Below, one piece after another: positions 2,428 through 46,975 of a stretch of DNA of 64,000 bases. This DNA is from an uncultured Gammaproteobacteria bacterium. Lineage in GTDB: Bacteria; Patescibacteriota; Patescibacteriia; Magasanikbacterales; UBA922. The translations under genes were made by a program, and so were the position numbers. Position 1 is the stretch's first letter. Every line of letters begins with the position of its first letter. A model generated the notes under the pieces. The model did no database searches. It saw only the letters and a program-made list of their open reading frames with translations, and was not told the origin of the DNA. The stretch is from contig CAYFPJ010000001.1 in NCBI GenBank assembly GCA_964344965.1, positions 86,771 to 150,770 on the forward strand, read 5' to 3'.

Positions 2428-2495
2428 GAGTAGTGTTTTCAGGCTAGACAAGAGCCTAAATTGACGGTAAGATAGATCCAGCTAACTCGATTTTT

Positions 2496-5400
2496 ATGAA
2501 TTTTGTTCACCTTCATACTCACTCTCATTATTCTCTTTTGCGTGGGTTGCCAAAAATTAAAGAGCTAGTAACCGCTGCCAAACAGAAGGGTTTTTCTGCT
2601 ATTGCACTTACAGATTATGGGGCCATGTACGGGGCAATTGAATTTTATAAAGAATGTCAAAAACAAGATATAAAGCCGATCATTGGTTTCGAGGCATACT
2701 TGGCTCCGAGAAATCATACTGACAAAGATTCACAGCATGATAAAGAATTTTCCAATTTGGTGCTACTGGCCAAAAATTATGACGGCTATCGTAACTTGAT
2801 GAAACTTTGTTCCATTTCACACCTCGATGGATTTTTTGATGGCAAGCCAAGAGTTGATAAAGATTTGTTGCGACAGTATAGCAAAGATATAATTTGTTTG
2901 TCCGGCTCTATCCTAGGAAATATTCCTCGCTTATTAAAAAATAATGATTTGGAAGGAGCAAAAAAAGAAGCTTTGGAGCTCAATGAAATTTTTGGGCCTG
3001 ATAATTTTTATCTGGAAATGCAAGATCATCCGGGAATAGAAGGTCAGCTGGATGTGAACACAAAATTGACTCAGATGTCAAAGGAAACCGGAATACCACT
3101 TGTTGTCAGTCGCAATGTTCATTATTTGGAGCCAGATCAATCTGAAGCCCAGGATGTCTTAGTCTGTATTGGTGAAGGGTGGAAGATAGGTCAGACAGAT
3201 CGTGTAGATTATCGTCACGTCGATCGGTCTCTCAATACAGGAGAGGATATTGCTTCTCGTTTTCGTCATGTGCCAGAGGCAATAGAGAACACTGTCAAGA
3301 TTGCTGACATGGTCAATATTGAAATAGAGCTAGACAAGTGGCATTTCGCGCCAGTAGATTTACCAAAAGATAAGAATGCAGATGAATTTCTTCGTGATGA
3401 GGTTTACAAATATGTAGGAAATTTTTATGATCCAGTGACAGAAGAGATAAAAGAGCGAATTGAATACGAGCTAGACATTATAAAAAACAAAGGATATTCA
3501 CCATATTTCATCTGCGTGGCAGACTATGTTCGCTATGCCAAGGATAATGGAATAGTAGAATCCACTCGTGGTTCAGCAGCAGGATCAGTAGTCTCCTATG
3601 TTCTTGGAATTACTACTGTTGATCCAATTCACTTCAAACTCCCTTTTGAACGTTTTCTAAATCCATTTCGTCCCAGTCCTCCTGATGTAGATACTGATTT
3701 TGCCGATGACCGACGAGATGAGATGATCGAGTATGTAACTAATAAATATGGTGTTGATAAAGTTGCTCAGATCATTACATTCGGATCTATGGCAGCAAGA
3801 GCTAGTGTGCGTGATGTGGGTCGGGTACTTGGTTTTTCTTATGGTTTTTGTGATCAGGTAGCTAAGCTGATTCCTATAGGAGCCCAAGGTTTTCCTATGA
3901 CAATCGAGCGTGCCCTAAAAGAAGAGCCAGATTTGAAAAAATTGTACGATACAAATGAGGACGTAAAGCGTCTCCTCGGTCTGGCCCAGCAAGTGGAAGG
4001 GTGTGCTAGACATACTTCTATTCATGCTGCTGGGGTGGTAATTTCTCCTACACCACTAACTGATTTTACCCCAGTCCAAAGAGAAACCGGGGGAGAGCGT
4101 ATTCTCACTCAGTACAGCATGTATGACGTAGAGTCTGCCGGAGTTCTGAAGAATGATTTTCTTGGGATTCGTAATCTTTCTATCCTTGGAAAGGCTGTGG
4201 AGATCGTGGAAAAAACAACAGGCGAGCGTGTCGATATTTATAACCTTCCACTCGACGATATAAAAACATATGAAATGATTTCACGCGGAGAAACAATGGG
4301 AGTATTTCAGTTTGGTAGCTCGGGGATGCAGCGGTGGATCAAAGAACTTAAGCCGACAAACATCGACGATATCATGGCTATGGTCGCACTATATCGTCCC
4401 GGGCCAATGGATTTCATTCCAGAGTATATTCGTCGCAAACACAACCCAGAAGTAATTGATTATCCGCATCCGGATATTGAAGAGATTCTTGAGAAGTCGC
4501 TCGGACTCTTGATTTATCAAGATGATATCATGCTTACGGCGATCAAGCTTGCTGGCTATGATTGGCTTGAGGCAGACAAATTTCGTAAGGCGATGGGGAA
4601 GAAAATTCCTGAGCTTATGATTGAGCAAGAGAAAAAGTTTAAGCAAGGATGTGTTGAAAATAAGATTCCAAAAGATACCGTGGAAGATTTGTGGAATCGT
4701 ATCAAACCCTTTGCATCTTACGGATTTAATAAAGCACATGCCGCAAGCTATGGCATGGTTGCATATCAGACTGCTCACATGAAGGCTCACTATCCGGTGC
4801 AGTATATGACAGCCGTCCTTCAAGCTGAGTCACATGATGCTGACAAGATTTCTGCTATTGTAGGTGAGTGTAGAAGAATAGGTATTGAAGTGCTACCACC
4901 CGATGTCAACGAAAGTTTCAAATCTTTTGCAATGATCTCAAAACCTGGCGAGAAGGGAAGAATTCGATTTGGTCTCACTGCTATCAAGAATGTGGGTGAT
5001 CATATTTGTGAAGTAATTTATCAAGAAAGAAAGAAGAATGGTCAGTACAAAAGCTTGGAAGATTTTCTTGAGAGAATAGAAGATAAAGATCTGAACAAAA
5101 AGTCAGTAGAGAGTCTAGCAAAGACTGGGGCTCTTGATTGTTTTGGAATTGATCGCGGGGTCTTGATGGCTAATAGTGAGAATATTCTCGGATTTATTCG
5201 TCAAGAAAAAGAGAGGAGACAGACAAATCAGGATTCATTATTTGCCGGGACAAGTATTGCTATTGATTCTAAAGTCAGAATTGTAGAATCAGCAGAAGCT
5301 ACAATGGATGAAAAATTGGTTTGGGAAAAAGAATTGCTTGGAATATATGTGTCTTCTCACCCGTTTGCTTATTATCAAAAGTTTTTGGGAGAAAAAATAA

Positions 5401-7018: not shown

Positions 7019-8929
7019 TTAGACTTTCTTTTTTTTATTTCTTTTACGCCCGCTTTCATACCGTTCAATTATGGCTTCTTCTAGTTCTTGGTCAATCGTG
7101 ATTTGAGATCCTAGTTTTTCATGATCACCCCAAAAATGGAGGACCCATTCTGGATTTTCTTCCACCAACTCTTTCAAACACCGGCGAGGAGCTCTGGGAT
7201 CTATATTATATTTAGGACCCAAACTCCCAACAAATACTTTTTTATTTATGATTTCCTGAAAATATTCTAGATCTTCTATTAGTGTTTTGTTGATGCATAG
7301 GCGAATTCTGAAGTCACCTTTCATACGAAATTCTCTTAAGAGCGGAACATCTATTGGTAGTCCATAACCAAAATCACCTGCTCGTTCTGCTAGTATTCTC
7401 CTTTTTTTCATAATTTGCAAACAGGCTTTTTTAACACTAGGGACAGCTCTCTGTTCAGAGGTAGAGGATGTTTTCCTAACAAAATGACTTAATGGTGTAT
7501 AAGCATCTGTGATTTCAGGATAAGTCTGGTGTATGTAGGACTTTACTTCGAGGATTAGTTTTTCGGAATAGATGATAGTGTTGTGTCCGATAGTTTTTAT
7601 ATTTTCTGACCTTTTTGCCTCACTATATAATTTTGTTGCAACTTGATTTGCCAGCCTCTTGAACAGACTTCTATCTACACCAATTTCTTTTGCGGCCAAG
7701 CTCTCTTTTTGAAATCCTGGGTGTGACAGCTCTAGAGCCGACTCTACCCCATCAGGCAATTTTCTTGGAAATCTAGCTTGGATATCCTTTATTTCTTCAC
7801 CCAATGTAGATTCTGTCGGATTATTTTTATAGACATACTTTAGTAATTCATAGACACCTATATACGATATATCTAAGTGTCTACTAATTTTAAGTCGGGC
7901 AGTGTTGGTCTTGTATACTCCGTATTCGTGTAGATCCACCATCTGTTCACTTGTTTGAAGTGCTGTGTATAGATTATTACACAGTCGGAGGTCAGTTATT
8001 GGTGGCACTAAATGACTATCATATGGGATGTTGTCACCTTCTGCAAAATCAGGTATTTTTTCTTCTGTTTCAAAATTGACAGCCATCACAACAGTATTTC
8101 CTAGAGCTTCAAGAGGTGTTCTGTGACTTTTATTTGCATATATATCTTGCAGTCCATATGTCCCGCGAGCTTCTTGACGTTCTGTTTTATCTAGTTTGGC
8201 TAGATTTTTCCAATCATCCGGATGAGAGAGTCGATGGGCTACAATAGTTGCTAGCCCAACTTGATCAGATACAAAGATTGCTTTATAACGTCTTTCGTCA
8301 TGTTGGTCCGCTATGAGAAAGACAGTATACTCGTGTGTTCGCATAGTCTCACGACCAAGCTCTCGATTGAGTTCATCCACAGACTTTCCGTGCCTGTCTA
8401 CAAAGGTAATTCCGTTATCACTCAATGCTTTTTCTACGGCTTCTGTCTTTTTGAGTTCTCTGAATAACTCTTTTCCTCTTTTGCCTTCAGCTTTTGAAGA
8501 TGGGCCTGACCCGTTTTTAGTATCTGGTGGGAAGATAAAAAAATCAACATCATCAGACTCTTCTGGCGTCAATAGTTCGAACTGGTCAAGTTTTTTTTCT
8601 ACCAGGGTTTCGAAGTAAATTTTTATCTCTCGTTCATCAATTGTGGGTATCTGTTGATCTCCGTCTTCTGCAGTTTCTGACATGAATGTAGTGATATCTT
8701 GTTCTGTCACTGGGTAGATGCCATCTTCATACAGATCCATAAAATCAAAGGCGAAGCGTACTGCGTCAACAAGTGATATCTGATTACCTTGACTCCTAAT
8801 AATCAAGTGAAACTGTTCACTCATCTGGCTTGATAGTCTCCTGATTGTTTCTGTTCTTAATTTTTCTCTGTCTGCAGGACGTTTTTCATCAGGGATAGGA
8901 CGATGTGCTGCTTCTTGTCTGGTTGTCAT
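7019..8929 (-). CDS. hypothetical protein (636 aa), function unknown
   Basis: Long uninterrupted ORF with plausible codon usage and no motif I can assign with confidence. Confidence 0.5.
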   Translation of the reverse strand: MTTRQEAAHRPIPDEKRPADREKLRTETIRRLSSQMSEQFHLIIRSQGNQISLVDAVRFAFDFMDLYEDGIYPVTEQDITTFMSETAEDGDQQIPTIDEREIKIYFETLVEKKLDQFELLTPEESDDVDFFIFPPDTKNGSGPSSKAEGKRGKELFRELKKTEAVEKALSDNGITFVDRHGKSVDELNRELGRETMRTHEYTVFLIADQHDERRYKAIFVSDQVGLATIVAHRLSHPDDWKNLAKLDKTERQEARGTYGLQDIYANKSHRTPLEALGNTVVMAVNFETEEKIPDFAEGDNIPYDSHLVPPITDLRLCNNLYTALQTSEQMVDLHEYGVYKTNTARLKISRHLDISYIGVYELLKYVYKNNPTESTLGEEIKDIQARFPRKLPDGVESALELSHPGFQKESLAAKEIGVDRSLFKRLANQVATKLYSEAKRSENIKTIGHNTIIYSEKLILEVKSYIHQTYPEITDAYTPLSHFVRKTSSTSEQRAVPSVKKACLQIMKKRRILAERAGDFGYGLPIDVPLLREFRMKGDFRIRLCINKTLIEDLEYFQEIINKKVFVGSLGPKYNIDPRAPRRCLKELVEENPEWVLHFWGDHEKLGSQITIDQELEEAIIERYESGRKRNKKKKV

Positions 8930-10161: not shown

Positions 10162-11203
10162 AAATTTTCCAATTTGGATTGGCTTCTATATCTTGCCACT
10201 TGGTGAAATTTTTATTTTTGGCATGGTGATAAGAGGCAACGGCGATCATGGCGGCGTTGTCCATGGCATATTTTAAGTTCGGAGCCAATAGTTCATAGCC
10301 AATAGTTTTTGTTTTGTCTTCCAGACTTTGGCGAAGTTTCTTATTAGCACTGACGCCGCCGGCGAGGATGATTGTTTTGGGGCTGTATTTTTGGGCGGCT
10401 TTGGTGGTTTTCTCGACAAGGACGTCGGTGATGGCTTGCTGGAAGCTGGCGCAGAAGTCTGGCAAGTTCGGAGCCAATAGTTCATAGTCAATAGTTTTTT
10501 TCTTTGCATTGTCTTGGAGCCAATATAAAGCAGCAGTCTTTAGGCCGGAGAAGCTCATGTCGAAGTTTTTGGAATTTATCATTGGTCTTGGAAAGTTTAT
10601 TGTCTCTGGATTTCCCTCTGTGGCGAGTTTGGAAATTTTTGGACCACCGGGATATTCGAGACCAAGTAGTTTTGCCACCTTATCAAAACATTCTCCAGCA
10701 GCATCGTCACGAGTGCCACCGACCTTTTCATAATTACCTTGTTTTTTGGAGAGGATTAACTCTGTGTGTCCTCCGCTAACAATTAAAGATAGTGCAGGAT
10801 ATTCAAATTGATTTTTGATTTTTGATTTTTGATTTAGGATTTGAACAGAGTGTATATGTCCTTCAATATGATTAACTCCAATCAGAGGTACTTCCCATAG
10901 GTATGACAGTGTCTTTGCCGCCTCAACTCCCACAATCAAACCTGTGATTAGTCCAGGACCAGAAGTGACAGCGATAAGATCTGGTTTTTTTACTCCTGCC
11001 TTTGAAAGCACCTCCTCAACAAGGGGAATAATCTTCTCAGCATGTTTCCTGCCAGCAATTTCTGGTACGACACCACCATATTTTTTGTGTACTTCAATTT
11101 GACTAGCTGTCAGTTCAGCTAGGATTTCAATTTTGTCATCAGTTATTTCTACGAGAGCGACAGATGTATCGTCACAAGAACTTTCTATTCCTAGTATTTT
11201 CAT
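10154..11203 (-). CDS. tsaD: tRNA N6-adenosine threonylcarbamoyltransferase
   Basis: MKILGIESSCDDTSVALV N-terminus and a C-terminal GGVSAN...DNAAMIA motif typical of Kae1/TsaD. Confidence 0.88.
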   Translation of the reverse strand: MKILGIESSCDDTSVALVEITDDKIEILAELTASQIEVHKKYGGVVPEIAGRKHAEKIIPLVEEVLSKAGVKKPDLIAVTSGPGLITGLIVGVEAAKTLSYLWEVPLIGVNHIEGHIHSVQILNQKSKIKNQFEYPALSLIVSGGHTELILSKKQGNYEKVGGTRDDAAGECFDKVAKLLGLEYPGGPKISKLATEGNPETINFPRPMINSKNFDMSFSGLKTAALYWLQDNAKKKTIDYELLAPNLPDFCASFQQAITDVLVEKTTKAAQKYSPKTIILAGGVSANKKLRQSLEDKTKTIGYELLAPNLKYAMDNAAMIAVASYHHAKNKNFTKWQDIEANPNWKIYE

Positions 11204-12845: not shown

Positions 12846-13715
12846 TCACAATATATCTAGTGAAATATCTAAAGCTTTTGTAGAATGGGTGAGGCTCCCA
12901 AGTGAGATGACATCGACACCACTCTTGGCATAGCCAGCAATATTTTTTTCATTAATTCCACCTGATGCTTCGAAAATAATATTAGTTTTGCCAATTTGCT
13001 TGAGAATTTTTCTGATATCACTTGGCTTGAAGTTGTCGAGCATGATGGCGCCGGGGTTTTGTTTTACAAATTTTAATACTTGGGATTTTGTTTTACATTC
13101 TATTTCCCAGAAAGACTTAAGACTTAAGATAGAAGATTTAAGATTTTTGTTTTTTTTGATATGATTGTCCTTTATTAAAATCCAGTCATAGAGTCCTAGT
13201 CTATGTGTTCCGCCACCACCTAAGGTTACTGCTTTTTTGTCGACTAGTCCCCATTGAGTTTTACGGGTTGGGACGATGAGGATATCTTTGCCTACTTTTT
13301 TTACTAGTTTGTTTGTTTGGGTGGTAATACCAGACATTCTTTGTAGTAAGTTTAAAATTGTCCGTTCTACTTTTAGAATATTTTTTATTCCTCCAGTTAT
13401 CTTGAGTATTTTTTCGCCTTTTTTGATCTTGCGACCATCCTTTTTGTAACTTGTAACTTGTAACTTGTAACTAGAGAGAAACCATTGTATTTCTTGGAGG
13501 CCAGCAACAATTCCATTCTCCTTGGCTTTTACAATAGCTGTCACTTTTGGATTTCCTTTTATCATTGCATCACTTGTGACGTCACCGATATTTTCAAGAT
13601 CTTCAGACAAAAAATCTGCAGTCAATCGTTTGACTTGCTCCAAGTATTTTTTATTTTTGAGAGTTAGTTTGGCTCTCTGATTAAAATACTTATATATTTT
13701 TTGTTTTTTATTCAT
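12846..13715 (-). CDS. nadC: nicotinate-nucleotide pyrophosphorylase (quinolinate phosphoribosyltransferase)
   Basis: 289-aa QPRTase family protein. It contains an in-frame (TTGTAAC)x4 tract at 13444-13471. Confidence 0.85.
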   Translation of the reverse strand: MNKKQKIYKYFNQRAKLTLKNKKYLEQVKRLTADFLSEDLENIGDVTSDAMIKGNPKVTAIVKAKENGIVAGLQEIQWFLSSYKLQVTSYKKDGRKIKKGEKILKITGGIKNILKVERTILNLLQRMSGITTQTNKLVKKVGKDILIVPTRKTQWGLVDKKAVTLGGGGTHRLGLYDWILIKDNHIKKNKNLKSSILSLKSFWEIECKTKSQVLKFVKQNPGAIMLDNFKPSDIRKILKQIGKTNIIFEASGGINEKNIAGYAKSGVDVISLGSLTHSTKALDISLDIL

Positions 13716-13819: not shown

Positions 13820-14830
13820 TTATTTACTCAGCTCCATCATGCGATCCAAAGCCAATTTTGCTTTTTGTAGAATTTCATCAGGAATATCAACAATTTGTTT
13901 TTTGTGAGGATTTTTCAGAGCCATTAGGACTTGCCCGAGATTAATCTGCTTCATGAAGGGGCAGAGCTGACAAGTGCCAACTATTTGCTTGTTTGGGAAT
14001 TCTGTCTTTACTCTATCAGTGATCCCACATTCGGTGATGAGCATGTAGTTGTCAGCTGGATTTTCTTTTACATATTTGAGCATGTCAGCTGTACTTCCGA
14101 CGAGATCTACAGCGTCAGTGACTGATGAAGTACACTCATAGTGAGCTAAGATGTGAGTTCCAGGATATTTCGTTCGTATATCATCTATGGCTTGCTTGTC
14201 AAAGCGTTCATGCACAATGCAAGTCCCATGCCAGAGGATTAATTTCTTCTTGGTTCTCTTTTGTAGATTTTCTCCCATCAGTTTGTCGGGAATGAAGATC
14301 ACTTCGTCTTCTTCAAATGATTCAATAATTTTGAGAGCATTGGAGCTGGTACAACAGACATCACTTTCAGCTTTCACTTCTGCGCTAGTGTTGACATAGG
14401 TCACTACTGGTACGCCTGGATATTTCTTTTTCAATTCTCTTACATTTTCAGCAGTAATACTCTCAGCTAGAGAACAGCCAGCGACGTCTGGGACTAGGAC
14501 TTCTTTTTCCGGACTAAGTATCTTGGCAGTTTCTCCCATGAAGTGTACCGAGCAAAAGATTATTTTTTTAGCGCTGTGTTCGGCGGCAATCTTGCTGAGA
14601 CCATAAGAATCTCCCACAAAATCAGCAATACCATACATGATATCTGGAGTTTGGTAAGAGTGGGCGAGAATGATAGCGTCTTGCTCTTTTTTGAGCTCAT
14701 TAATTTCCAGGGTCATGTGGGCTATCAAACCACAGTCTTCGAGAGACCAGTTGACGTTTTTTAGTTTTTCGTATAGTCGATTGGTTTCTGCTTTGATTTT
14801 TTCTGGTGAATATTTCATAATTTCTGTCAT
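13820..14830 (-). CDS. nadA: quinolinate synthase
   Basis: 336 aa with the cysteine-containing motifs of the NadA family. Confidence 0.88.
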   Translation of the reverse strand: MTEIMKYSPEKIKAETNRLYEKLKNVNWSLEDCGLIAHMTLEINELKKEQDAIILAHSYQTPDIMYGIADFVGDSYGLSKIAAEHSAKKIIFCSVHFMGETAKILSPEKEVLVPDVAGCSLAESITAENVRELKKKYPGVPVVTYVNTSAEVKAESDVCCTSSNALKIIESFEEDEVIFIPDKLMGENLQKRTKKKLILWHGTCIVHERFDKQAIDDIRTKYPGTHILAHYECTSSVTDAVDLVGSTADMLKYVKENPADNYMLITECGITDRVKTEFPNKQIVGTCQLCPFMKQINLGQVLMALKNPHKKQIVDIPDEILQKAKLALDRMMELSK

Positions 14831-14907
14831 TCTGAACGAAGTGAAGAATCTTTCTTAAGTTGTTTTTTATTTGTAAATAATATAGTGGTTTAAAAGGTTC
14901 TTGGTAG

Positions 14908-14936
14908 AAAAGATCCTTCGCTACGCTCAGGATGAC
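14908..14936. repeat. family B half element (AGATCCTTCGCTACGCTCAGGATGAC)
   Basis: A single arm of the family B palindrome. Confidence 0.5.
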
Positions 14937-15403
14937 AATTCTAGGCTATTCTTTTTAGTCCATGGTGCATGTTGTTGCCATAATGAGTTATTATTTTTTA
15001 TCATCTTACGCAGTTCTGTTCCAGAAATATTAATATTAATCTTAATCTTTTTTACATTATATCCTTTTTCTTCAAACAAACCCGCTACCCATTCATTACC
15101 AGTATAGACTACATCAAAACTTCCAACGATCTTCACCACATGGTCGATCCAATTTTTTTCGTCATGAATATCTGGAATGGCAAGTATTTTGTAATTTAAA
15201 TTTTGATCTTGAAGAGATTTTTCAATCATTTCTTTTCTTTCTTCAAAAGTCCAGGGATTTTCATCAGTATCGCTATACTGTGAACTACCAACTCCAATAA
15301 TTATTTCGTCTTCTGAAATTTGTTTCAAGGCATCGAGGTGGCCGAGATGGAAGGGTTGGAAGCGGCCGATGAAGAGGACTTTTTGCATAGACACAGATTG
15401 CAC
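14927..15403 (-). CDS. nicotinamide/nicotinate mononucleotide adenylyltransferase, archaeal NadM-like
   Basis: 158 aa with a FIGRFQPFHLGH nucleotidyltransferase motif; it sits inside the NAD biosynthesis operon. Confidence 0.75.
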   Translation of the reverse strand: MQSVSMQKVLFIGRFQPFHLGHLDALKQISEDEIIIGVGSSQYSDTDENPWTFEERKEMIEKSLQDQNLNYKILAIPDIHDEKNWIDHVVKIVGSFDVVYTGNEWVAGLFEEKGYNVKKIKININISGTELRKMIKNNNSLWQQHAPWTKKNSLELSS

Positions 15404-15418
15404 AGATTTTTACGGATT

Positions 15419-16159
15419 TCACAGATCACAGATTGGAGCTGTAGTATTTTTGTGAGTTGAATTTTTCATCATCTCTTTTACCTTCTCTACATCTGCACTT
15501 TCAAATCCATCCAAACTAGCATCATCCTCAATCGCTTTCAAAATTTTATCAAGCACTTCGTACGTTATTCCAATCTCTTCTTCATCAGTCTGACCTTCCC
15601 ATAGTCCTGCAGTCGGCGGTCGGTCAATTATCTCTTGAGGAACACCAATATGTTTTGCCAGTTCGCGTTCTTCTGTTTTGTAAAGATCTCCGATAGGTAA
15701 GAGGTCCACTCCACCATCACCATATTTTGTAAAGTAACCAATCATCAATTCTGTTTTATTTCCTGTACCGAGTACTATCCCGCCGATCTCATTTGCCTCA
15801 CCATAAAGGAGCGACATTCGGATCCGGGCTTTGAGGTTACCGGTTGAATATTGGGAGCTGTAGAGATTGTTGGTAGATTTTTGGAATGCCTCTAACATTG
15901 GTTCTATACTGAATACATAAGACTTAAGATTTAAGATTTTTGCCACACGTTTGGCAAGTTCGAGATCTTCCGAAGTGTTGCTGTCAGAAGGGGACATGAT
16001 AACATGGACTTTATCGGCTCCGAGGGCTTCGGTAGCAAGAAAAGCTACGACAGATGAGTCGATTCCGCCACTTAGGCCGATTACTACTGGTTTGTCACCG
16101 ACGTGGTGTTTTATAAATTGGATAATTTTGTCTTTTGTCTGATCCATAGAAATTGGCAT
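15419..16159 (-). CDS. nadE: NH3-dependent NAD+ synthetase
   Basis: VVIGLSGGIDSSVVAFLA PP-loop motif; 246 aa. Confidence 0.88.
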   Translation of the reverse strand: MPISMDQTKDKIIQFIKHHVGDKPVVIGLSGGIDSSVVAFLATEALGADKVHVIMSPSDSNTSEDLELAKRVAKILNLKSYVFSIEPMLEAFQKSTNNLYSSQYSTGNLKARIRMSLLYGEANEIGGIVLGTGNKTELMIGYFTKYGDGGVDLLPIGDLYKTEERELAKHIGVPQEIIDRPPTAGLWEGQTDEEEIGITYEVLDKILKAIEDDASLDGFESADVEKVKEMMKNSTHKNTTAPICDL

Positions 16160-16250: not shown

Positions 16251-16279
16251 TTGACATATTCTCCAAAATGCTATATAAT
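16251..16279 (+). promoter_or_regulatory. sigma70 promoter TTGACA-17-TATAAT for tRNA-Glu
   Basis: ttgaca at 16251-16256, a 17-nt spacer and tataat at 16274-16279. A second ttgaca lies at 16235-16240. Confidence 0.6.
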
Positions 16280-16307: not shown

Positions 16308-16379
16308 GGCCCCATCGTCTAGTGGTTAGGACACCAGGTTTTCATCCTGGGAACAGGGGTTCGATTCCCCTTGGGGCTA
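16308..16379 (+). tRNA. tRNA-Glu (anticodon UUC)
   Basis: Cloverleaf folded by hand: acceptor GGCCCCA / TGGGGCT, anticodon stem CCAGG / CCTGG with loop TTTTCAT, T-arm GGGG TTCGATT CCCC. The 5' end resembles E. coli tRNA-Glu. Confidence 0.85.
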
Positions 16380-16496
16380 CGAAACACAAAGAGGTCTTGC
16401 CAAAACAAGATTTTTTTGTTTTCATTAAGCTAAAACTATAGAGTTCCATTTTTTGTAATGGAATTTTTTTAAAAGGGCAACATAAAACGATTCTTA

Positions 16497-16532
16497 CGCC
16501 CAACTTAGCAAAATACAGGGTTCGATTCCCCT
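16497..16532 (+). pseudogene. chimeric tRNA remnant (5' part like tRNA-Thr GCCAACTTAGC, T-arm like tRNA-Glu CAGGGTTCGATTCCCCT)
   Basis: Read directly; it cannot fold into a complete cloverleaf. Confidence 0.45.
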
Positions 16533-16545
16533 AAACTTTTTTTCT

Positions 16546-18696
16546 ATGTCTTTTCTGAATAGAGAACAACGTATTGATTTGTTTATGTCTCTTTTTACCG
16601 GACGTGAAGACGTGTATGCCTACCGTTGGGAAAGTAGGGGCGGAAAGAAAGGGTATGCTCCCGCGTACGCAGATAGTAACAAAAAACAATATATCCCTTT
16701 CACTAAAAATGTTGTAGAGCAACACCTCTTGGGGAATCAAACAATTGGGGTATACCCATTTCTCACATATAATACATCTAGATTTGTCGTAGCGGATTTT
16801 GATACACCGGACTGTCTGAATTTGCTAAAAAGACTGATAGAAGTATGTAGAGAACGTGGAATAGAGACTTACATTGAGCGATCTCAGTCAGGTAGCGGAT
16901 TTCACGCGTGGTGGTTTTTTGAACAAGCGTATCCTGCATACAAATCACGAAAGATATTTCTTACCCTTCTCAAAAATGCAGGAATCATAGATCAATTTGA
17001 TAAAACGGAAAGTTTTGATCGATTATTTCCCAACCAAGATTATCTTTCAGGTAAAGGGTTGGGTAATTTGATTGCTCTGCCATTGCAAGGTAGCTCAAGA
17101 AAAAGAGGTGCCACTGTATTTCTCGACCCTGAGAATGATTTTCGAGTAGCCAAAGATCAATGGGGATTGCTCCAAGGGATAAAACGCATATCTATGGAGA
17201 CATTGGATAAACTATTTGAGATATCCACACAAAATAGGGATTATTTCATTGAGAATGACACAACAATGTTAGACGCAGATACCGGAAGTGTCCCAATTAC
17301 AATATCGACTCATATTGTTATTCCTAAAAAAGCTGTATCAAAAAATTTTGCGAATTTTCTTTCAGATCATTTACATTTTTTCAATACAGAATACGCGGTC
17401 AAACAAAAGATGGGGCTGTCGACGCATAATACGGAACGATTCTTCAATACAATTGAAAAGTCTGATGAACATATTTTCCTCCCAAGAGGTTTCTTCTCAA
17501 AATTTACTTCTTTTCTTGGAGAAAATAATATCCCGTACACTATTCGTGATGCGAGAATAGAATTTGATTCTCCGACAAAGGTTTCATTATCGTGTCCTCT
17601 CTTTGTATATCAAGAGAAAGCAGTACATGCTTGCCTTTCACAAGATACAGGTATTCTTGTTGCCCCTCCGGGATCTGGAAAGACAATCATGGGTTTGTCT
17701 CTCGTCGCAGCCAGGAAACAACCGAGCTTGATTATCACTCACAGAAAACAAATTTATGAGCAATGGTTAGAACGTATCGAACAATTCATGGGAATATCTA
17801 AAAAGAACATTGGACAAATCACATCTACAAAGAAGGTTATACGATCTCCAATTACTGTCGCTACGATTCAGACACTTGCTCGGATGGTAGATACGATAAA
17901 AGACGAGATGGCCACACATTTTGGATGTATTATTGTTGATGAATGCCATCATATCCCTGCAAAAATGTTCAGACGTGTCATTACCCAGCTCAGCCCGAAA
18001 TATCTCTATGGACTTACCGCAACACCAATGCGCAAACATAATGACGAAAGACTAATGTTTTTGTATCTAGGAGAAAACATATATGAAGTCTCAAAGGAGG
18101 ATATAAAACAAAATAGCTCCAAAGATTCATCTGATGTGAAAATTTATGTTCAAGAAACTGAATTATCTTTTCCATTTACCGTTCACACGAGAAATTATCA
18201 GACTGTGTCAAAAATGCTTATTGCCGATACCAAGAGAAATGAACAAATCATTGCCGACGTGACTTCGGAAATTGAACAAGGTAAGAAGTGTTTGTTGCTC
18301 ACAGAACGGAAGGAACACGTAAAGATATTCCAGCTGTATCTTGGTAAAAAATATGAAACCATCACGCTCACCGGTGGAGAAAGGATTATGAAGAGAAAAC
18401 AGAAGATTGAACAGATCAAAAGTGGTCATTTTCAGGTGATTATTGCGACCGGACAGTACATAGGAGAGGGTATGCATTTTGACGATCTGGATTCGTTGTT
18501 TCTGGTATATCCGTGTTCATTTAGTGGAAAATTGACGCAATATATTGGCAGAGTATTACACAGCGATAATAGTTCAAAGAATGTATATGATTATAGAGAC
18601 AGCGACATTCCTTATTTCGAGAGGATGTTCAAAAAGAGGAAAAAATATTATGAAAAAGAGTATGGAGGTAATAGTAATATGAGAACATTGCTATGA
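16546..18696 (+). CDS. PrimPol (archaeo-eukaryotic-type primase-polymerase) domain fused to an SF2 DEAD/DEAH-box helicase
   Basis: N-terminal PrimPol motifs VVADFDTPD (DxD) and SQSGSGFHAWWFF. The helicase carries Walker A APPGSGKT, DECHH, TATPMR and a C-terminal QYIGRVLH motif VI. Confidence 0.75.
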   Translation: MSFLNREQRIDLFMSLFTGREDVYAYRWESRGGKKGYAPAYADSNKKQYIPFTKNVVEQHLLGNQTIGVYPFLTYNTSRFVVADFDTPDCLNLLKRLIEVCRERGIETYIERSQSGSGFHAWWFFEQAYPAYKSRKIFLTLLKNAGIIDQFDKTESFDRLFPNQDYLSGKGLGNLIALPLQGSSRKRGATVFLDPENDFRVAKDQWGLLQGIKRISMETLDKLFEISTQNRDYFIENDTTMLDADTGSVPITISTHIVIPKKAVSKNFANFLSDHLHFFNTEYAVKQKMGLSTHNTERFFNTIEKSDEHIFLPRGFFSKFTSFLGENNIPYTIRDARIEFDSPTKVSLSCPLFVYQEKAVHACLSQDTGILVAPPGSGKTIMGLSLVAARKQPSLIITHRKQIYEQWLERIEQFMGISKKNIGQITSTKKVIRSPITVATIQTLARMVDTIKDEMATHFGCIIVDECHHIPAKMFRRVITQLSPKYLYGLTATPMRKHNDERLMFLYLGENIYEVSKEDIKQNSSKDSSDVKIYVQETELSFPFTVHTRNYQTVSKMLIADTKRNEQIIADVTSEIEQGKKCLLLTERKEHVKIFQLYLGKKYETITLTGGERIMKRKQKIEQIKSGHFQVIIATGQYIGEGMHFDDLDSLFLVYPCSFSGKLTQYIGRVLHSDNSSKNVYDYRDSDIPYFERMFKKRKKYYEKEYGGNSNMRTLL

Positions 18697-18770
18697 TCGG
18701 CTTGTCATTTTTTTCAGATATCCACAGTGATATATCACATTTTTTTTAATTTTGTGATATATTTACAGGG

Positions 18771-19901
18771 ATGTATCATATTCTGCTATATATCAAATAT
18801 ATGCCAAAAACATTCAATCCAACAACTCCATATACACCTCCCACGCTTCCTCCCAAAGATATCAAGGCAATTGAGGCAGCATTAAGCGAACAGATCATGG
18901 AGGCGCGTATAGCCCTCGCTGAACTCAAAGGGTTTAGTGTGGCTGTGCCCAACCCATTATTACTTTTGTCTCCCGCCATCTTGCGTGAATCATTGGCCAG
19001 TTCTGAAATTGAGAATATTCACACAACGTTGATTGATGTCTTGGAAAACCAGTTGTTTCCTGAACGGGAGCAGCGAGAAAAAGACAAAGAAGTTTTGCGT
19101 TATCGTGATGCTATTCTTTGGGGCTTCGAACAAGTAGAAAAATTGGCTGTCTCAACCAGATTGATTCATGGAGTGCATCACAAATTGATGCCTACCATAC
19201 ACAGAGGTTATCGCTCACAGCAAAATACTATTGCTGATGGAGCAGGTCGAGCAATATATACCCCACCTACTGTACCCGTAATGAAAGAGTGTATGAGCGC
19301 ATGGGAAACGTTTGTGAATGATGACAAGCAATCAGTTGATCCTTTGGTAAAAGCCATTCTTGGGCATTATCAATTTGAATCAATCCATCCGTTTCCTGAT
19401 GGAAATGGCAGAACAGGACGTATTTTAATGATTTTAGAATTGATCCAAGATCGAATTCTTATCTGGCCAATTTTGTATATCAGCGGCTACATCAACACGC
19501 ATAAGAGGGAGTATTACTCGTCCCTTATCAATGTAACTAAGAAAAATGACTGGATAAGCTATATTCGTTTTATGTTGGTTGGATTTGCTGACCAAGCAAA
19601 AGAAACCAAAGATGTATTGCAATCTATTATGACGCTCTTTGATGCGTACAAAAAAGAATTAAAGGAAAAGAAAACACGGGTGTATTCCGCTGATTTGGTA
19701 GAGTCGCTATTTACATATCCAATTATCACCCCCACAAAATTGAGTGAGTCTCTCAATATCCATTATACTACTGCCACGAGACATCTTGAGGTACTCAAGA
19801 AGTTAACACTCTTGGAGGAGAAGAAAGTTGGAAAGTACCGATTTTTTATCAATGTCAAATTACTTGAGGTATTATCCCCGAAGAAAGCAAAGAAGAATTG
19901 A
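18771..19901 (+). CDS. Fic/Doc family protein (putative AMP-transferase) with N-terminal inhibitory SxxxEN motif
   Basis: Canonical Fic motif HPFPDGNGRTGR. SSEIEN matches the [ST]xxxE[GN] inhibitory helix of class II Fic proteins. The C-terminus is wHTH-like. Confidence 0.8.
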   Translation: MYHILLYIKYMPKTFNPTTPYTPPTLPPKDIKAIEAALSEQIMEARIALAELKGFSVAVPNPLLLLSPAILRESLASSEIENIHTTLIDVLENQLFPEREQREKDKEVLRYRDAILWGFEQVEKLAVSTRLIHGVHHKLMPTIHRGYRSQQNTIADGAGRAIYTPPTVPVMKECMSAWETFVNDDKQSVDPLVKAILGHYQFESIHPFPDGNGRTGRILMILELIQDRILIWPILYISGYINTHKREYYSSLINVTKKNDWISYIRFMLVGFADQAKETKDVLQSIMTLFDAYKKELKEKKTRVYSADLVESLFTYPIITPTKLSESLNIHYTTATRHLEVLKKLTLLEEKKVGKYRFFINVKLLEVLSPKKAKKN

Positions 19902-20079: not shown

Positions 20080-20107
20080 GAAGGGTTCTCCGCCCAAGGC
20101 GGACCCG
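20080..20107. terminator. GC-rich hairpin CCGCCCAAGGCGG acc CGCCTTGGGCGG abutting the att-like repeat
   Basis: The arms are a perfect reverse complement. Confidence 0.4.
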
Positions 20108-20126
20108 CCTTGGGCGGGGATTCCCC
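20106..20126 (+). repeat. direct repeat of the tRNA-Glu 3' end (putative attR)
   Basis: GGGGATTCCCCTTGGGGCTAC versus tRNA 3' GGGGTTCGATTCCCCTTGGGGCTAC; it differs only by a 4-nt deletion. Confidence 0.6.
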
Positions 20127-20139
20127 TTGGGGCTACTAG

Positions 20140-20442
20140 CTTGCTTGCTTGCTTGACAAATCTATTATAGAATGGTATTATCAAGCTCACCATAGACAGC
20201 AGCCCACCTTCGCTAAGGCTACGGTGGATAAGGCTCGATCCAATCGATGCCAAGTCCCATCTAGACCGAAAGGTGATAATATACCAGACTGCCGAGGTTA
20301 TTTACTCCGAATTTTCCAAATTTTTATAATTTGGTGATCGTAGAGAGGTCGAAAATAACAAGAAGTTCTGTGGTCAAACCACAGTTTTTTATTTTATAGC
20401 AATTGTCTATGAACTATTGGCTAAGAACTAAATAAATAAATT
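20140..20442 (+). promoter_or_regulatory. probable ribosomal protein L10 (rplJ) autoregulatory leader
   Basis: A roughly 300-nt structured untranslated region directly upstream of rplJ. The position is conserved for the L10 leader, but the motif itself could not be verified. Confidence 0.35.
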
Positions 20443-21696: not shown

Positions 21697-23943
21697 TTAT
21701 ATTCCAAAAGAGTATATTTTGTTACTATCTAGAATATAGATAGTACCCCCTGCTTCATCCACTATCATTCCGGTCGGATTTTGCCATTCCTCGGCAGTGT
21801 ACTGATTTAGTAGCTTTCCTTCTTTATTTAGTACTACTACACGTTTTCCAGATGGCTCAAGGATATAAATATTTTCGACATCATTGTATGTCCAGAGTAT
21901 AGTTGGGTTGGCAAGTTTTGGGTCTAGTCCTGTGATATTGAATTCTTCTTTTTCTCCACTCACAAATTTGAAAATTTCTCCATCGGCTTTCAAAACAAAG
22001 ATGTCACCATCAACCGCCAGGGAAGTGGCGTCGCTTACGTCCGCCCCTTCTGTCTTTATCCATGAGCTACCTTTGTCATAACCAGTCTTAGTTTTGTTGT
22101 GTTTATATATCTGATTGCCGTCTCTGTCTACTGCGTATAGGCGTAAATTGTACACAAATATATCAGCAATATCCACCTTTTCACTGGGATAGTTTATGTC
22201 ATTCTTTGATAATGTTTTTGTCTCTTTGTTGTAGTCAGAAACGTGTTGACTGTCTGATAAAAACACTATCTTGTCTTGTTCTTTTGGAGTGGATGCTGAT
22301 GCTATGTTTGGTATTATGTCGTGGGAGTGAACTTCACTATTTTGGGTGTCAAGATCAAAATTGTAAAATGATTTATCGTCTGGTCCATAGGCGATCAGAG
22401 TATTGTCGATTCTGGCTATTTTTTGTATGTTTGCTTCAGGGTATTGACTCTGTAGATTTGCCAACAACTTGGGGGACACCACCTCAATATTTCTAAGCTT
22501 AAGGAGGCTTTCTTCAACTAGACTAGAGAATTGTAAGGCAATTTCCTCAGTATTTTTCTTGTTGTCCGGTATTGTGTCAATTAACTTTTGTGCCTCCCTG
22601 AGTAGCGTCAAAGCCTTGCTGCTGTCATTGTATATCATGCTTGCATCAGCTGCTGATATCTTATCTTCAATGGCCTGAATATGATTGATGTAAGCTTGTT
22701 CTCTTATTTTGTTTTCTTCTTTTATTTTTATCCCAGTGATGCTGACAACAAACAGCATGGCCGCCAATATCGTACCAATTAGTAATATTTTACTAAAAAA
22801 AGGTAGATTTTTTAGGTACTGCCCAATATTGTGACCTGTGTTTTTGAATGACTGAATGGACTCCTTTCTACTATTATTTTTATTAGTAATTAGAATAAAA
22901 AGCATGATAAATATTTTTCCAATTACAATTGCTATTTTTTTTATTATATTTATCAAGCCTATACAGCTTTGTACTAAGGCTCTACCTACGCTTACTAGGA
23001 TTGTGCTTTTTAAGGACTGTATTTCTTCGTCTCGTCTTGGTCTATAATTACTTTCTTTTATATTATCTCTGACTATCCTTCTCCTTTTTTTTGAAGATTT
23101 TTTTGAAGAAGATTTTTGTTTTTTGTCTTTTTTTATTTTCTTTTTTAGACTGCCAAATAGGGGAGGGGAAAGAGTCTCAGCTGTATCTCTCTCTGATTGG
23201 AGTAGCTGATCAAGGGATTCGGCTGAGCTTTGATCTGTTCTGCTTGAAAGTGAGTTGTTGGTTGTTTGCAATCCTTCTTTTTGTGCCAAATATTTGCATA
23301 AGATACCTCCAAAAGAAGATTTGTCATGGAGATTTCTCAGGACTTTTTCTATGTGAGATACGCTTTGTTGGATATTTCTAGACCCAATTATTTTTTGGAG
23401 TCTGTCGTATGAAAAGTGGTCGGCAACCTGAGGGGTCATGAGAAATATTTTGTCCTCTGGGTTTATGTTTCCTTCAATTACAGAAGAAAATAGTGTGGCA
23501 CCATCCTCCTCATCAGTGTGCTCATCCAAAATATTGAAAGTATTTGTGTGGTTTTTTTGTTTATAAAATAATATGGCATGAGGGGTACCATGATAACTTA
23601 TTGATATGTTGTCTTTTTTTACCACTGCAACTAGACAGTGGATGGAAACTTTTTTGTCGAGAATTCCTGAATTTTTACGATTGATATACTCTAAGGTCAG
23701 CTCAAATGGACTTTTTTCTCCGTCTTGGTTTGCTGTATCATAGTACCCAGCTTCTATATCATCAATGATTTCTTGCATTTGCTCTATGTGCTCTATTGAT
23801 CCATTATTGATTTCACAAAGTGCCAAAAAATATCCCTTCTCAGACTCTTCTTCTGTCGAGGGTTCTGTAATGTGGAGGAGGACATGTGAGGATTTCTGGT
23901 CATTTCCTTCAACAAAAAATTCTCGTATATCTACGTTATGCAT
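21697..23943 (-). CDS. hypothetical membrane protein: N-terminal degenerate PP2C/SpoIIE-like domain, TM segment, KR-rich linker, C-terminal beta-propeller-like repeats
   Basis: 748-aa ORF. The N-terminus loosely resembles the PPM fold (IHCLVAVV...LMTPQV) but lacks DGHGG. There is one hydrophobic stretch near residue 380. Confidence 0.45.
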   Translation of the reverse strand: MHNVDIREFFVEGNDQKSSHVLLHITEPSTEEESEKGYFLALCEINNGSIEHIEQMQEIIDDIEAGYYDTANQDGEKSPFELTLEYINRKNSGILDKKVSIHCLVAVVKKDNISISYHGTPHAILFYKQKNHTNTFNILDEHTDEEDGATLFSSVIEGNINPEDKIFLMTPQVADHFSYDRLQKIIGSRNIQQSVSHIEKVLRNLHDKSSFGGILCKYLAQKEGLQTTNNSLSSRTDQSSAESLDQLLQSERDTAETLSPPLFGSLKKKIKKDKKQKSSSKKSSKKRRRIVRDNIKESNYRPRRDEEIQSLKSTILVSVGRALVQSCIGLINIIKKIAIVIGKIFIMLFILITNKNNSRKESIQSFKNTGHNIGQYLKNLPFFSKILLIGTILAAMLFVVSITGIKIKEENKIREQAYINHIQAIEDKISAADASMIYNDSSKALTLLREAQKLIDTIPDNKKNTEEIALQFSSLVEESLLKLRNIEVVSPKLLANLQSQYPEANIQKIARIDNTLIAYGPDDKSFYNFDLDTQNSEVHSHDIIPNIASASTPKEQDKIVFLSDSQHVSDYNKETKTLSKNDINYPSEKVDIADIFVYNLRLYAVDRDGNQIYKHNKTKTGYDKGSSWIKTEGADVSDATSLAVDGDIFVLKADGEIFKFVSGEKEEFNITGLDPKLANPTILWTYNDVENIYILEPSGKRVVVLNKEGKLLNQYTAEEWQNPTGMIVDEAGGTIYILDSNKIYSFGI

Positions 23944-24092
23944 ATGGGATATTACCTTTGACTTTTGATATTGAGGGTATTATACTATAGATTATTATCG
24001 CTTGGCAATGAGGCAATATAATTTTAGTCAACCTATTTTGCAATTTTCAATATTTAGAATTTAGAATTTAGAATTTTTGATTTATCAAACAT

Positions 24093-28574: not shown

Positions 28575-28607
28575 ATACTTTAACACTTTAACACTTTAAC
28601 ACTTTAA
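28573..28607. repeat. tandem repeat (ACTTTAAC)x4
   Basis: Read directly. Confidence 0.8.
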
Positions 28608-28710
28608 CATCTTGATATCTTTTAATCCCCCTAATATCTTAATACTTTTTGGTTCTGTGCACGTTGTGTGTCTAGGTGTTTAAGTGCTAAGGTGTTCAAG
28701 TGAAGCCCGT

Positions 28711-46715: not shown

Positions 46716-46809
46716 CAATTGACCTTTGACAATTAACAATTAACTTTTTTGAAAAAGCTACATGACAATTAGTCAATTGTCAAAAGTTAAATGTTAATTG
46801 TAGCATTAT

Positions 46810-46830
46810 GCCAACTTAGATCAGCTGGTC
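46810..46830 (+). pseudogene. duplicated 5' fragment of tRNA-Thr (GCCAACTTAGATCAGCTGGT) followed by the GC hairpin CCGCCTACGCTGAAGCTTCGGCGG
   Basis: Matches the first 21 nt of the tRNA at 46900 with one mismatch; there is no T-arm. Confidence 0.6.
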
Positions 46831-46899
46831 CGCCTACGCTGAAGCTTCGGCGGATAAATGCCGCAATCGTTTTGTTCTTTCAATTATTATACAACACAT

Positions 46900-46975
46900 G
46901 CCAACTTAGCTCAGCTGGTAGAGCAATGGTTTTGTAAACCATCGGTCCGGGGTTCGAGTCCCCGAGTTGGCTCCA
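46900..46975 (+). tRNA. tRNA-Thr (anticodon UGU), CCA encoded
   Basis: Acceptor GCCAACT/AGTTGGC, D GCTC/GAGC, anticodon stem ATGGT/ACCAT with loop TTTGTAA, T-arm CGGGG TTCGAGT CCCCG, discriminator T, then CCA. Confidence 0.85.

Follow-up and report, generated by a model that had tools for sequence, protein, structure and literature searches.

The gene at positions 16546 to 18696 of the 64,000-nucleotide (nt) stretch analyzed here (contig CAYFPJ010000001.1; called the window in what follows) almost certainly encodes an archaeo-eukaryotic primase (AEP) of the primase-polymerase (Prim-Pol) type that is fused to a superfamily 2 (SF2) helicase resembling XPB and UvsW. We refer to this primase-polymerase/helicase gene and to its family as PPH. 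As to its function, we lean, in a judgment that is evenly balanced, toward PPH being a horizontally moving conflict or defense-island enzyme and not the replicase of a replicon of its own. The original prediction had proposed either the replication of a mobile element or a role in defense or repair; both options are still live, and we rank defense first, followed by replication and then by repair. The coordinates of the individual features are compiled in Table 1.

The primase-polymerase half of PPH was identified by profile, structure, and alignment. Its residues 9 to 222 matched the Pfam family PF22548 (AEP-TOTE) with an E value of 4.1e-73 and 246.2 bits (cutoff, 27 bits), covering profile positions 2 to 229 of 230. 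The N terminus was also matched by the PADLOC model "PrimPol" (described as "PrimPol, CAS associated"; E = 2.9e-61) and by the structurally determined Prim-Pol domain of a CRISPR-associated Prim-Pol (CAPP) from Marinitoga (Protein Data Bank [PDB] entries 7nqd and 7nqf; E of about 1e-17), and the NCBIfam model PrimPol_Msp scored 118 bits, which is below its cutoff of 200. All motifs quoted in the original prediction (VVADFDTPD, SGSGFHAWWFF, GSGKT, DECHH, TATPMR, and QYIGRVLH) are found in the translation, and its assignment of a PrimPol domain joined to an SF2 helicase agrees with the matches to PF22548, ResIII, and Helicase_C. That assignment had been made to depend on an AEP profile match in the first 200 residues; the PF22548 match is strong, and the motifs lie within the conserved fold. 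In the alignment with the Marinitoga protein (MpCAPP; 7nqd), D84 and D86 (motif I, DxD) coincide with the DiD metal-binding motif, H120 with the histidine, and D158 (motif III) with the third acidic residue; motif II reads S113-x-S115-G-x-G118-x-H120, and the blocks SGSGFH and FPNQ...GLGNLIALPL are conserved between both proteins. An AxA mutant of the DxD motif of CAPP was inactive (PMC8211822). The AlphaFold2 model of PPH, for which 100 homologs served as input, had a mean predicted local distance difference test score (pLDDT) of 88 (about 90 for the AEP part) and consists of the AEP domain (residues 1 to 230), a compact alpha/beta domain (249 to 335) that is attached through a flexible linker, and a two-lobed SF2 core (350 to 706). 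Foldseek superimposed the AEP part on 7nqd, 7nqe, 7nqf, and 7p9j with target-normalized template modeling (TM) scores of 0.78 to 0.81, root mean square deviations of 3.4 to 3.6 Å, and 27 to 30% identity. The residues D84, S113, S115, G118, D158, K379, T380, D465, E466, T491, T493, R496, D500, Q665, and G668 are invariant in the 100-sequence alignment, and at least 90% of these homologs retain D86 and H120. The catalytic residues of both enzymes are thus invariant or nearly so (alignments of 20 and 100 homologs), and on this basis both catalytic halves are presumably active. An identical protein (P0001) is recorded from 3 contigs.

The remainder of the protein contains a complete SF2 helicase core preceded by an accessory domain. 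Pfam matches to ResIII (E = 1.5e-29), DEAD, and Helicase_C lie within residues 352 to 670, and the following SF2 motifs were located: Q356, motif I (GSGKT, 376 to 380), motif II (DECHH, 465 to 469), motif III (TATP, 491 to 494), motif V (TGQxxGEG, 635 to 642), and motif VI (QYIGR, 665 to 669). Most of these residues are invariant in the 100 homologs. Directly after TATP, at a position that presumably matches that of the RED motif of XPB, the family conserves R496-K-x-N-D500-E, a variant and not R-E-D. Sequence matches in the PDB were XPB, RadD, and a SauUSI-type helicase, and Foldseek ranked archaeal XPB first (6p4o, 5tnu, and 2fwr; about 490 aligned columns), followed by XPB of TFIIH, T4 UvsW (rank 12), and RadD. 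The scores against the corresponding family models are far below their cutoffs (103.7 versus 610 bits for NF045503 XPB, 68.3 versus 328.7 for TIGR00603 rad25, and 52 versus 720 for RadD). Judging from the model, the helicase is XPB/UvsW-like in fold and not an XPB ortholog. The middle domain, in which K261, L276, N280, P313, R314, G315, and F316 are conserved, had no significant PDB match when modeled alone; XPB chains recurred only at E values of about 1 to 2.5 and TM scores of 0.35 to 0.39, and the similarity to the damage-recognition domain of XPB is not significant. Stand-alone helicases of phages and of IMG/VR, some of the former annotated as UvsW-type "RNA-DNA and DNA-DNA helicase" or as "DNA repair helicase," match PPH from approximately residues 242 to 262 onward, which argues that the middle domain belongs to the helicase module. 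PPH therefore resembles XPB/Rad25, RadD, and T4 UvsW, its best structural matches, in having a complete SF2 core, and it shares with XPB and UvsW, as well as with the stand-alone phage helicases, an N-terminal accessory domain ahead of this core. Unlike XPB/Rad25, RadD, and UvsW, it is fused to a polymerase, and unlike XPB, it has no Bax1 or TFIIH-type partner.

The original prediction regarded the fusion of a PrimPol to an SF2 helicase as an uncommon architecture, which was not borne out. A homolog search matched at least 7,872 proteins out of 8,000 candidates, and PF22548, ResIII, and Helicase_C were present together in all 120 of the matches listed, nearly all of which are about 700 to 720 residues long and 45 to 66% identical to PPH. 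One homolog (52% identity) is named [quoted passage not shown] at NCBI. The fusion is also found in the literature: Zabrady et al. (2021; PMC8211822) defined a "CAPP-Helicase" type and reported the helicase-fused form to be the most prevalent architecture among non-CRISPR CAPP homologs, typically in mobile elements. A scan of one genome per species returned 80 loci, nearly all of them matching over almost the whole protein, and the phyla with PPH include Patescibacteria, Bacteroidota, Ignavibacteria, Actinomycetota, Proteobacteria, Myxococcota, Elusimicrobia, and others; genome-reduced lineages of the Patescibacteria type are thus part of the family. For the AEP domain, clustering at 50% left 421 representatives at E values of up to 1e-30, 2,150 at up to 1e-10, and 5,084 at up to 1e-3. 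The PPH family is large, horizontally spread, and catalogued by Pfam, by NCBI, and in the CAPP paper; the locus of the window is an ordinary member, and its architecture is not new.

Several family members are longer than the PPH of the window. Seven proteins (P0067, P0072, P0074, P0098, P0111, P0118, and P0077) have a 17-residue insertion with four cysteines, CLNEWKxGxCxK...C(K/R)DC (alignment A1, columns 56 to 72), in the N-terminal part of the AEP domain, which is absent from the PPH of the window and is probably a zinc knuckle. Four long forms of about 1,100 residues (P0058, P0060, P0086, and P0114) carry an N-terminal extension of about 370 residues in which AEP-like motifs can be recognized by eye (VIDID, SGNGCQLW, and DLPRIIKIIGT); if these motifs hold, the long forms would contain two different primase-polymerase domains in tandem ahead of the helicase. 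Members from Bacteroidota (L025, L076, L019, L016, and others) have C-terminal extensions of about 300 to 400 residues (approximately residues 700 to 1,100). Neither the N-terminal nor the C-terminal extensions, scanned as a possible clue to function, had a Pfam match.

To characterize the genomic context, ORFs (open reading frames) were called in 81 loci, and the 506 genes within four positions of PPH were clustered; in addition, the Pfam families of 139 first and 126 second neighbors (265 in total) were determined, and the top 25 families were listed. The 506 neighbors fell into 438 clusters, and the context is therefore hypervariable. The families that recur are as follows. (i) Fic is the most frequent neighbor (10 of 81 loci). 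(ii) Schlafen-AlbA_2 together with HATPase_c_4 was found in 9 loci. (iii) AbiEii was found in 8 loci, and a cluster co-occurring with it in 7; the latter has no Pfam match and is presumed to be the AbiEi antitoxin. (iv) Less frequent were AAA_14/DUF4143 (4 loci) and HipA, DUF6088, and type I HsdR (3 loci each); by Pfam, PIN_3, PIN, and Abi_2 accounted for two first neighbors each and RES for two second neighbors. Tyrosine recombinases occur near PPH in 7 loci; Phage_integrase accounts for 2 of the 126 second neighbors and is not among the top first-neighbor families. The relatives closest to the PPH of the window show the same variety. The closest (66% identity; L135) is located beside restriction-modification genes and DUF6155 and has no Fic gene, another (54 to 55% identity; L083) is likewise accompanied by DUF6155, and a 56%-identical relative has Fic directly upstream; close relatives also lie beside DUF6155 with AlbA_2 and a KAP NTPase, beside NYN, or beside PemK and RhuM. 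A contig of the viral collection carries a serine recombinase, Fic, and, after a 4-nt gap, PPH; restriction genes of types I and III lie in the vicinity. These neighborhoods are the signature of defense and toxin-antitoxin islands. The DUF6155 gene (about 185 residues; L135, positions 2479 to 3042; L083, positions 7450 to 7995) is located directly upstream of PPH with gaps of 6 to 13 nt and is a second candidate partner gene.

In the window, the neighbor of PPH is a Fic gene whose start at 18801 corresponds to the gene call in public contigs. Its product has the Pfam domains Fic_N and Fic and a SoFic-like C-terminal winged helix-turn-helix (wHTH) domain; the active-site motif HPFPDGNGRTGR (HPFxDGNGRxxR) is intact, and the N-terminal inhibitory motif SxxxEN is present as well. 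It matched the PADLOC SoFic model with an E value of 1.6e-102 and scored 271 bits against the NCBIfam SoFic equivalog, below the cutoff of 550. SoFic is a validated abortive-infection AMPylase and stand-alone defense gene (Millman et al. 2022; PMC12249575). The neighbor thus resembles SoFic in its three-domain architecture and intact motif, whereas SoFic has been described as a stand-alone system and not as the partner of a primase-helicase, beside which it stands here. The region between both genes contains weak promoter-like sites (18734 to 18763 and 18752 to 18779) that overlap the GTGATATATCAC palindrome and the repeat GTGATATAT, and it could serve Fic as operator and promoter, perhaps recognized by the wHTH domain of the Fic protein.

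The original prediction had suggested a survey of whether PPH homologs co-occur with Fic. The link proved to be real, since it was seen in 10 of 81 loci and includes tight pairs, but it is partial, with about 88% of the loci lacking Fic. All 8 Fic proteins that are immediately adjacent to PPH matched the PADLOC SoFic model. At least six independent loci, among them L037, L038, L040, L088, and L094, carry both genes in the same direction with gaps of 0 to 30 nt; the gene order in the window is reversed relative to the other pairs, and in three loci the pair is divergent. In a neighbor-joining tree, PPHs with and without linkage to Fic are intermixed; the linked ones are scattered over three phylum-level clades and are densest (6 of 15) in the clade to which the PPH of the window belongs. 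The Fic partners are only 27 to 32% identical to each other; the pairing is therefore not one recently copied operon, and, together with the scatter over the tree, this suggests a repeated or long-maintained association, although most loci lack Fic. These data bear on a special case of a defense function, namely, that Fic and PPH form a two-gene system in which PPH senses foreign DNA and releases or regulates Fic, or in which Fic modifies PPH or its target. The frequency, tightness, and scatter of the pairs argue for such a system. It is nevertheless rather unlikely, given that most loci, including that of the closest relative, have no Fic gene, that the divergent orientation occurs, that SoFic works stand-alone and is common in genomes, that the Fic gene of the window seems to have its own predicted promoter and operator, and that the place of Fic is taken elsewhere by other toxins. 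The recurrent pairing provides a concrete and testable two-gene hypothesis.

Two named systems to which the AEP domain is related were considered. The first is CAPP, which acts in CRISPR adaptation (Zabrady et al. 2021, PMC8211822). PPH is like the CAPP_A "CAPP-Helicase" in that it belongs to the same AEP clade (PF22548), has the same catalytic DxD, H, and D residues, and shows the same order of Prim-Pol followed by helicase (example in that paper, RHW43474, whose helicase may or may not be of the XPB/UvsW-like SF2 type). The best named matches, the PADLOC model and PrimPol_Msp, and the solved relative would accordingly fit a CAPP that helps in spacer acquisition. However, unlike the case of CAPP, there are no cas1 or cas2 genes, no other cas genes among the neighbors, and no CRISPR-like array in the window; the PrimPol_Msp score is below its cutoff, and no Cas families are among the top families listed for the 265 homolog neighbors. 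A CRISPR-associated Prim-Pol was therefore rejected for this locus, and we consider a role in adaptation to be extremely improbable. The second system is TOTE, an acronym of TPR, OB, TBP, and Effector according to Aravind, Iyer et al. (2022) as cited in PMC12458937, after which the Pfam family of the AEP domain is named. This assignment was also rejected: in contrast to TOTE systems, PPH is a stand-alone fusion without TPR/OB/TBP operon partners, and TPR, OB/cold-shock, and TBP partners were not found in PPH, in the islet, or in the listed neighbor families. There is no TPR in PPH or its window neighbors (nadE, tRNA-Glu, Fic, and rplJ), and TPR, OB, and TBP families are absent from the top 25 listed for the 265 homolog neighbors, a list beyond which rare cases are possible.

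The description of the locus as a tRNA islet next to a Fic protein was correct. The islet starts at the 3' end of a tRNA-Glu(UUC) gene, the last 18 nt of which (GATTCCCCTTGGGGCTAC) recur downstream of Fic. These are the only two exact matches of this repeat in the window, and none was found in 100 shuffled sequences, even when two mismatches were allowed. The 3.76-kb segment between the two copies contains only PPH and Fic as ORFs of at least 100 residues; neither has a recombinase domain, and no recombinase was detected among ten further ORFs of the window that were scanned, including those beside other tRNA genes, all of which were housekeeping genes or had no family match. The flanks consist of housekeeping genes: upstream are tsaD and an NAD operon (nadB, nadC, nadA, a nadD-like gene, and nadE), and directly 3' of the distal repeat follow a near-consensus rplJ promoter (20153 to 20181), an L10-leader-like element, and rplJ-rplL. 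A segment bracketed by tRNA 3'-end repeats and lacking an integrase thus looks like an att-flanked islet without recombinase, either lost or never present, and, by extension, like a decayed or cis-mobilizable islet that was inserted between tRNA-Glu and the rplJL operon. Cis-mobilizable elements (CIMEs), known from the ICESt1/ICESt3 literature, are att-flanked islands without an integrase. The islet is like CIMEs in having direct repeats of the tRNA 3' end at both sides and no recombinase of its own; it differs in that the likeness is drawn from sequence, an empty site or circular junction not having been found in the contigs searched. No islet-free variant was present among contigs with an identical L10 protein, and those reaching far enough upstream carry Fic and, where reached, PPH; the predicted empty junction (the tRNA-Glu body, then ...GGGGCTAC|TAGCTTGCTTGC) had no exact match in JGI metagenome contigs. 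A partial copy of the tRNA T-arm (GGGTTCGATTCCCCT) precedes PPH; a 14-mer of this arm was found twice in the window search (0 expected), and the copy is possibly the relic of an earlier integration or deletion. The GC-rich inverted repeat (TCTCCGCCCAAGGCGG/CCGCCTTGGGCGGGGA) that abuts the distal repeat may be an arm to which a recombinase binds or the remnant of a terminator. A retroelement-like mobility primed by tRNA was dropped as an explanation, as the pairing is not continued to CCA by the bases beside the repeat, which can be accounted for as the core of an ordinary recombinase site. The L10-leader-like element (20172 to 20400) scored 27.5 bits with the Rfam L10_leader model, below the gathering score of 44; it has a long insertion in its first hairpin and a terminator-like hairpin at its end (20368 to 20384), and it is probably the divergent L10 leader of this lineage.

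Table 1. Features of the PPH locus in the window
Feature	Position	Strand	Description
tRNA-Glu promoter	16251-16279		Perfect sigma-70-type, TTGACA-17-TATAAT; promoter scan
tRNA-Glu(UUC)	16308-16380	+	ARAGORN; Rfam tRNA, 65.7 bits; islet starts at its 3' end
Proximal 18-nt direct repeat GATTCCCCTTGGGGCTAC, attL-like core	16363-16380	+	Last 18 nt of the tRNA gene
Partial tRNA T-arm copy GGGTTCGATTCCCCT (third copy)	16518-16532	+	14 nt upstream of the PPH ATG
PPH gene	16546-18696	+	716 residues, open throughout
AEP (Prim-Pol) catalytic domain	16570-17211	+	Residues 9-222; PF22548, MpCAPP alignment, Foldseek, invariant columns
Middle alpha/beta domain	17290-17550	+	Residues 249-335; AlphaFold2 model, pLDDT mostly 80-95
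SF2 helicase core	17593-18663	+	Residues 350-706; ResIII, Helicase_C, PDB and Foldseek matches, invariant columns
PPH-Fic intergenic region	18727-18762	+	Palindrome GTGATATATCAC, 18727-18738; repeat GTGATATAT, 18754-18762
SoFic-type Fic gene	18801-19901	+	366 residues from ATG at 18801; longest ORF begins at 18771
GC-rich inverted repeat (TCTCCGCCCAAGGCGG/CCGCCTTGGGCGGGGA)	20087-20120	+	16 nt, 94% complementary; abuts the distal repeat
Distal 18-nt repeat copy, attR-like	20119-20136	+	3,756 bp from the proximal copy

Similar islets were found elsewhere. A tRNA gene is located within 6 kb of PPH in 20 of the 81 loci, and in 15 of these its 3' end points toward PPH. Four loci are, like the window, bracketed by tRNA-derived repeats: (i) in Sphingobacterium (L025), a 17-nt repeat of tRNA-Glu encloses 5.8 kb with AbiEii, a putative AbiEi-like partner, and PPH; (ii) in a metagenome-assembled genome of Bacteroidetes (L076), a 17-nt repeat of tRNA-Asp encloses 4.8 kb with PPH and Abi_2; (iii) at a tRNA-Met (L080), a 25-nt repeat encloses 4.6 kb with PemK and PIN modules and PPH; and (iv) in Paraconexibacter (L051), a 47-nt repeat of tRNA-Arg encloses 4.8 kb with PPH and a tyrosine integrase. 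The genome of the latter harbors a second PPH copy (L065) with an integrase nearby. PPH is the sole gene common to all five islets (3.8 to 5.8 kb), four of which have no integrase. At L076, a tyrosine integrase gene (14515 to 15966) begins just beyond the distal repeat, so that this locus is also CIME-like, with an integrase-bearing unit after the distal repeat; this suggests the tandem accretion of two elements at one tRNA and possibly the cis mobilization of the integrase-less islet. PPH thus travels on small integrase-mobilized islets, most observed copies being without an integrase of their own. A 24-nt fragment of a tRNA-Arg is repeated 175 bp from this tRNA beside the Fic-PPH pair of L040 (8488 to 8737), which parallels the partial tRNA copy located 161 bp from tRNA-Glu in the window.

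The islets bear directly on the alternative that PPH replicates a small integrative element. In this case, opening of the origin would fall to the helicase and priming and extension to the AEP, and the excised circle would replicate without DnaA, DnaB, or DnaG, with an integrase for excision provided in cis or in trans; SF2 initiators of the herpesvirus UL9 type with a primase offer a comparison. We regard this alternative as possible, although on the unlikely side. Integrated elements and small plasmids are classically replicated by fusions of an AEP and a helicase (Kazlauskas 2018). Also in favor of this alternative are the mobile-element location of non-CRISPR CAPP homologs (Zabrady 2021), the fact that PPH is the only gene shared by the bracketed islets, L051, which comprises little beyond integrase and PPH between its repeats, the integrases near L065 and L076, and the orientation of the tRNA genes. 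PPH is like pRN1 ORF904, poxvirus D5, P4 alpha, and PrimPol-PV1 (Kazlauskas 2018) in combining AEP and helicase in one polypeptide, and PPH and these primase-helicases are frequent on integrated elements near tRNA genes. The latter, however, contain SF3/D5 (superfamily 3), MCM, RepA/DnaB-like, or UL9-like helicases and often PriCT or winged-helix origin-binding domains, whereas the helicase of PPH is a monomer-type, XPB/UvsW-like SF2 enzyme and not an SF3, DnaB, or MCM ring, and no PriCT or origin-binding domain was detected. As only SF2 families match PPH, with no match to D5_N, D5_C, PriCT, DnaB, or MCM in Pfam and NCBIfam, a ring-type replicative primase-helicase (pRN1, D5, or P4 type) was rejected. 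Replication of an element by PPH is also at odds with the scarcity of tyrosine recombinases (just 7 of 81 loci) and of integrases in the bracketed islets, with the lack of recurrent excisionase, relaxase, or structural genes nearby, and with the lack of an iteron-like origin in the short noncoding parts of the islet.

The distribution over phages and plasmids points in the same direction. None of 50,697 phage records contained a match with at least 80% coverage, and only the helicase part has phage relatives, so a phage replication gene was rejected; among 2.9 million viral contigs of IMG/VR, 41 related loci were found, 2 of which are full length. Full-length copies were present in 98 plasmid records. 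The three plasmids inspected (78 to 221 kb) have typed replicons of their own, and PPH is located in their accessory regions, next to HigB, HipA, and Xre-type toxin-antitoxin genes, insertion sequence elements, or a trio of tyrosine recombinases; for these three, we rejected PPH as the plasmid's own replicase. The trio was seen in Paracoccus aminophilus pAMI8 (L092, 9318 to 12771), where three consecutive tyrosine recombinase genes (recombinase-in-trio) adjoin PPH.

A third explanation is that PPH is a host enzyme of DNA repair or damage tolerance, kept for its benefit to the cell, in which the XPB/RadD-like helicase would find stalled forks or lesions and the Prim-Pol would reprime or carry out translesion synthesis. 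The nearest helicase matches, XPB, Rad25, RadD, and UvsW, are repair helicases, and the islet of the window is flanked by housekeeping genes. Other bacterial Prim-Pols of mobile elements have repair activities as well: AgaPP carries out end joining and translesion synthesis, and the Prim-Pol domain of DRT7, a Prim-Pol/reverse-transcriptase fusion that functions in phage defense, reads through oxidative damage. We nonetheless consider this explanation improbable. The family has a patchy, horizontally transferred distribution and hypervariable neighborhoods, copies reside on plasmids and on att-bracketed islets, no recurrent linkage to ligase, Ku, Bax1, or Uvr was found among the homolog neighbors, and the scores are far under the XPB and RadD equivalog cutoffs.

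On top of what was observed directly, namely, the domain identities, the motifs, the islet, and the neighborhood statistics, we infer for PPH a set of enzymatic activities, a substrate, and a role in defense. In the manner of XPB, UvsW, and RadD, the helicase module would bind duplex or branched DNA (forks, D-loops, or R-loops) and use ATP to open or remodel it. On the strand thus exposed, DNA would be primed and extended by the tethered AEP, so that replication intermediates of invading DNA would be subverted or marked; toxin-type genes such as SoFic would often act alongside PPH and possibly in concert with it. Relatives of the AEP domain in immunity, CAPP in CRISPR adaptation and DRT7 in phage defense, also speak for a role in defense. 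We propose this scheme because of the known motor action of XPB and UvsW and the biochemistry of CAPP, for which DNA-dependent DNA priming, extension, and strand displacement have been demonstrated (PMC8211822).

A number of points weigh against a role in defense. (i) Guilt by association cannot separate a defense gene from a rider on mobile islands that are rich in toxin-antitoxin modules, which also serve as addiction modules. (ii) Many of the neighboring toxins come with their own antitoxins and may therefore be autonomous. (iii) The census had no matched control set, and the enrichment is qualitative. (iv) PADLOC has no validated system model for PPH, and the only full-length-domain matches are to "CRISPR-associated PrimPol" models. 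(v) The two actinobacterial copies in small integrase-bearing elements fit a replicase equally well. (vi) No experimental study of a PPH-type fusion was found in the literature. A more specific version of the defense reading, which we put forward only tentatively and consider doubtful, takes PPH as the constant core of a modular anti-invader system, in which the motor would put the primase-polymerase on foreign replication intermediates and which would combine with an interchangeable adjacent toxin on a minimal, integrase-less, att-flanked islet; the partner would be a SoFic-like AMPylase most often and AbiEii, a Schlafen-like protein, NYN, PIN, or PemK elsewhere. If PPH does function in defense, a family with thousands of members would add to the known immune mechanisms a DNA-synthesizing enzyme coupled to a DNA-opening motor, and the CAPP clade of Prim-Pols would gain a non-CRISPR context.

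Other features of the window were noted outside the islet. An ORF of 748 residues downstream of rplL (21697 to 23943, minus strand) matched no Pfam or NCBIfam family above threshold and had weak matches to Tachylectin and RAC_head. Tandem repeats with a unit of 7 or 8 nt are located at 10808 to 10835, 13444 to 13472, 24052 to 24076, 28577 to 28609, 34960 to 34988, 35169 to 35198, 54132 to 54156, and 54175 to 54203. Seven of these are perfect and one is near perfect (95%), with 3.6 to 4.3 copies each; several are inside conserved coding genes (tsaD, at about residues 123 to 132, nadC, and the ORF at 34493 to 35626). By estimate, such repeats are vastly more common than expected by chance in 64 kb, and none is within the PPH-Fic islet. 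The 5' part of the tRNA-Thr(UGU) gene (46898 to 46919) has a 22-nt near-copy (95%) at 46808 to 46829, 90 nt upstream of that tRNA; this copy may represent a further tRNA that is decayed or escaped detection, or else one more att-like relic. Finally, a perfect 26-nt direct repeat, AAAAATATGCCAAAAATATTAGGAAT, is present at 57937 to 57962 and 58029 to 58054, 92 nt apart, and its second copy overlaps the start of the ORF at 58035.

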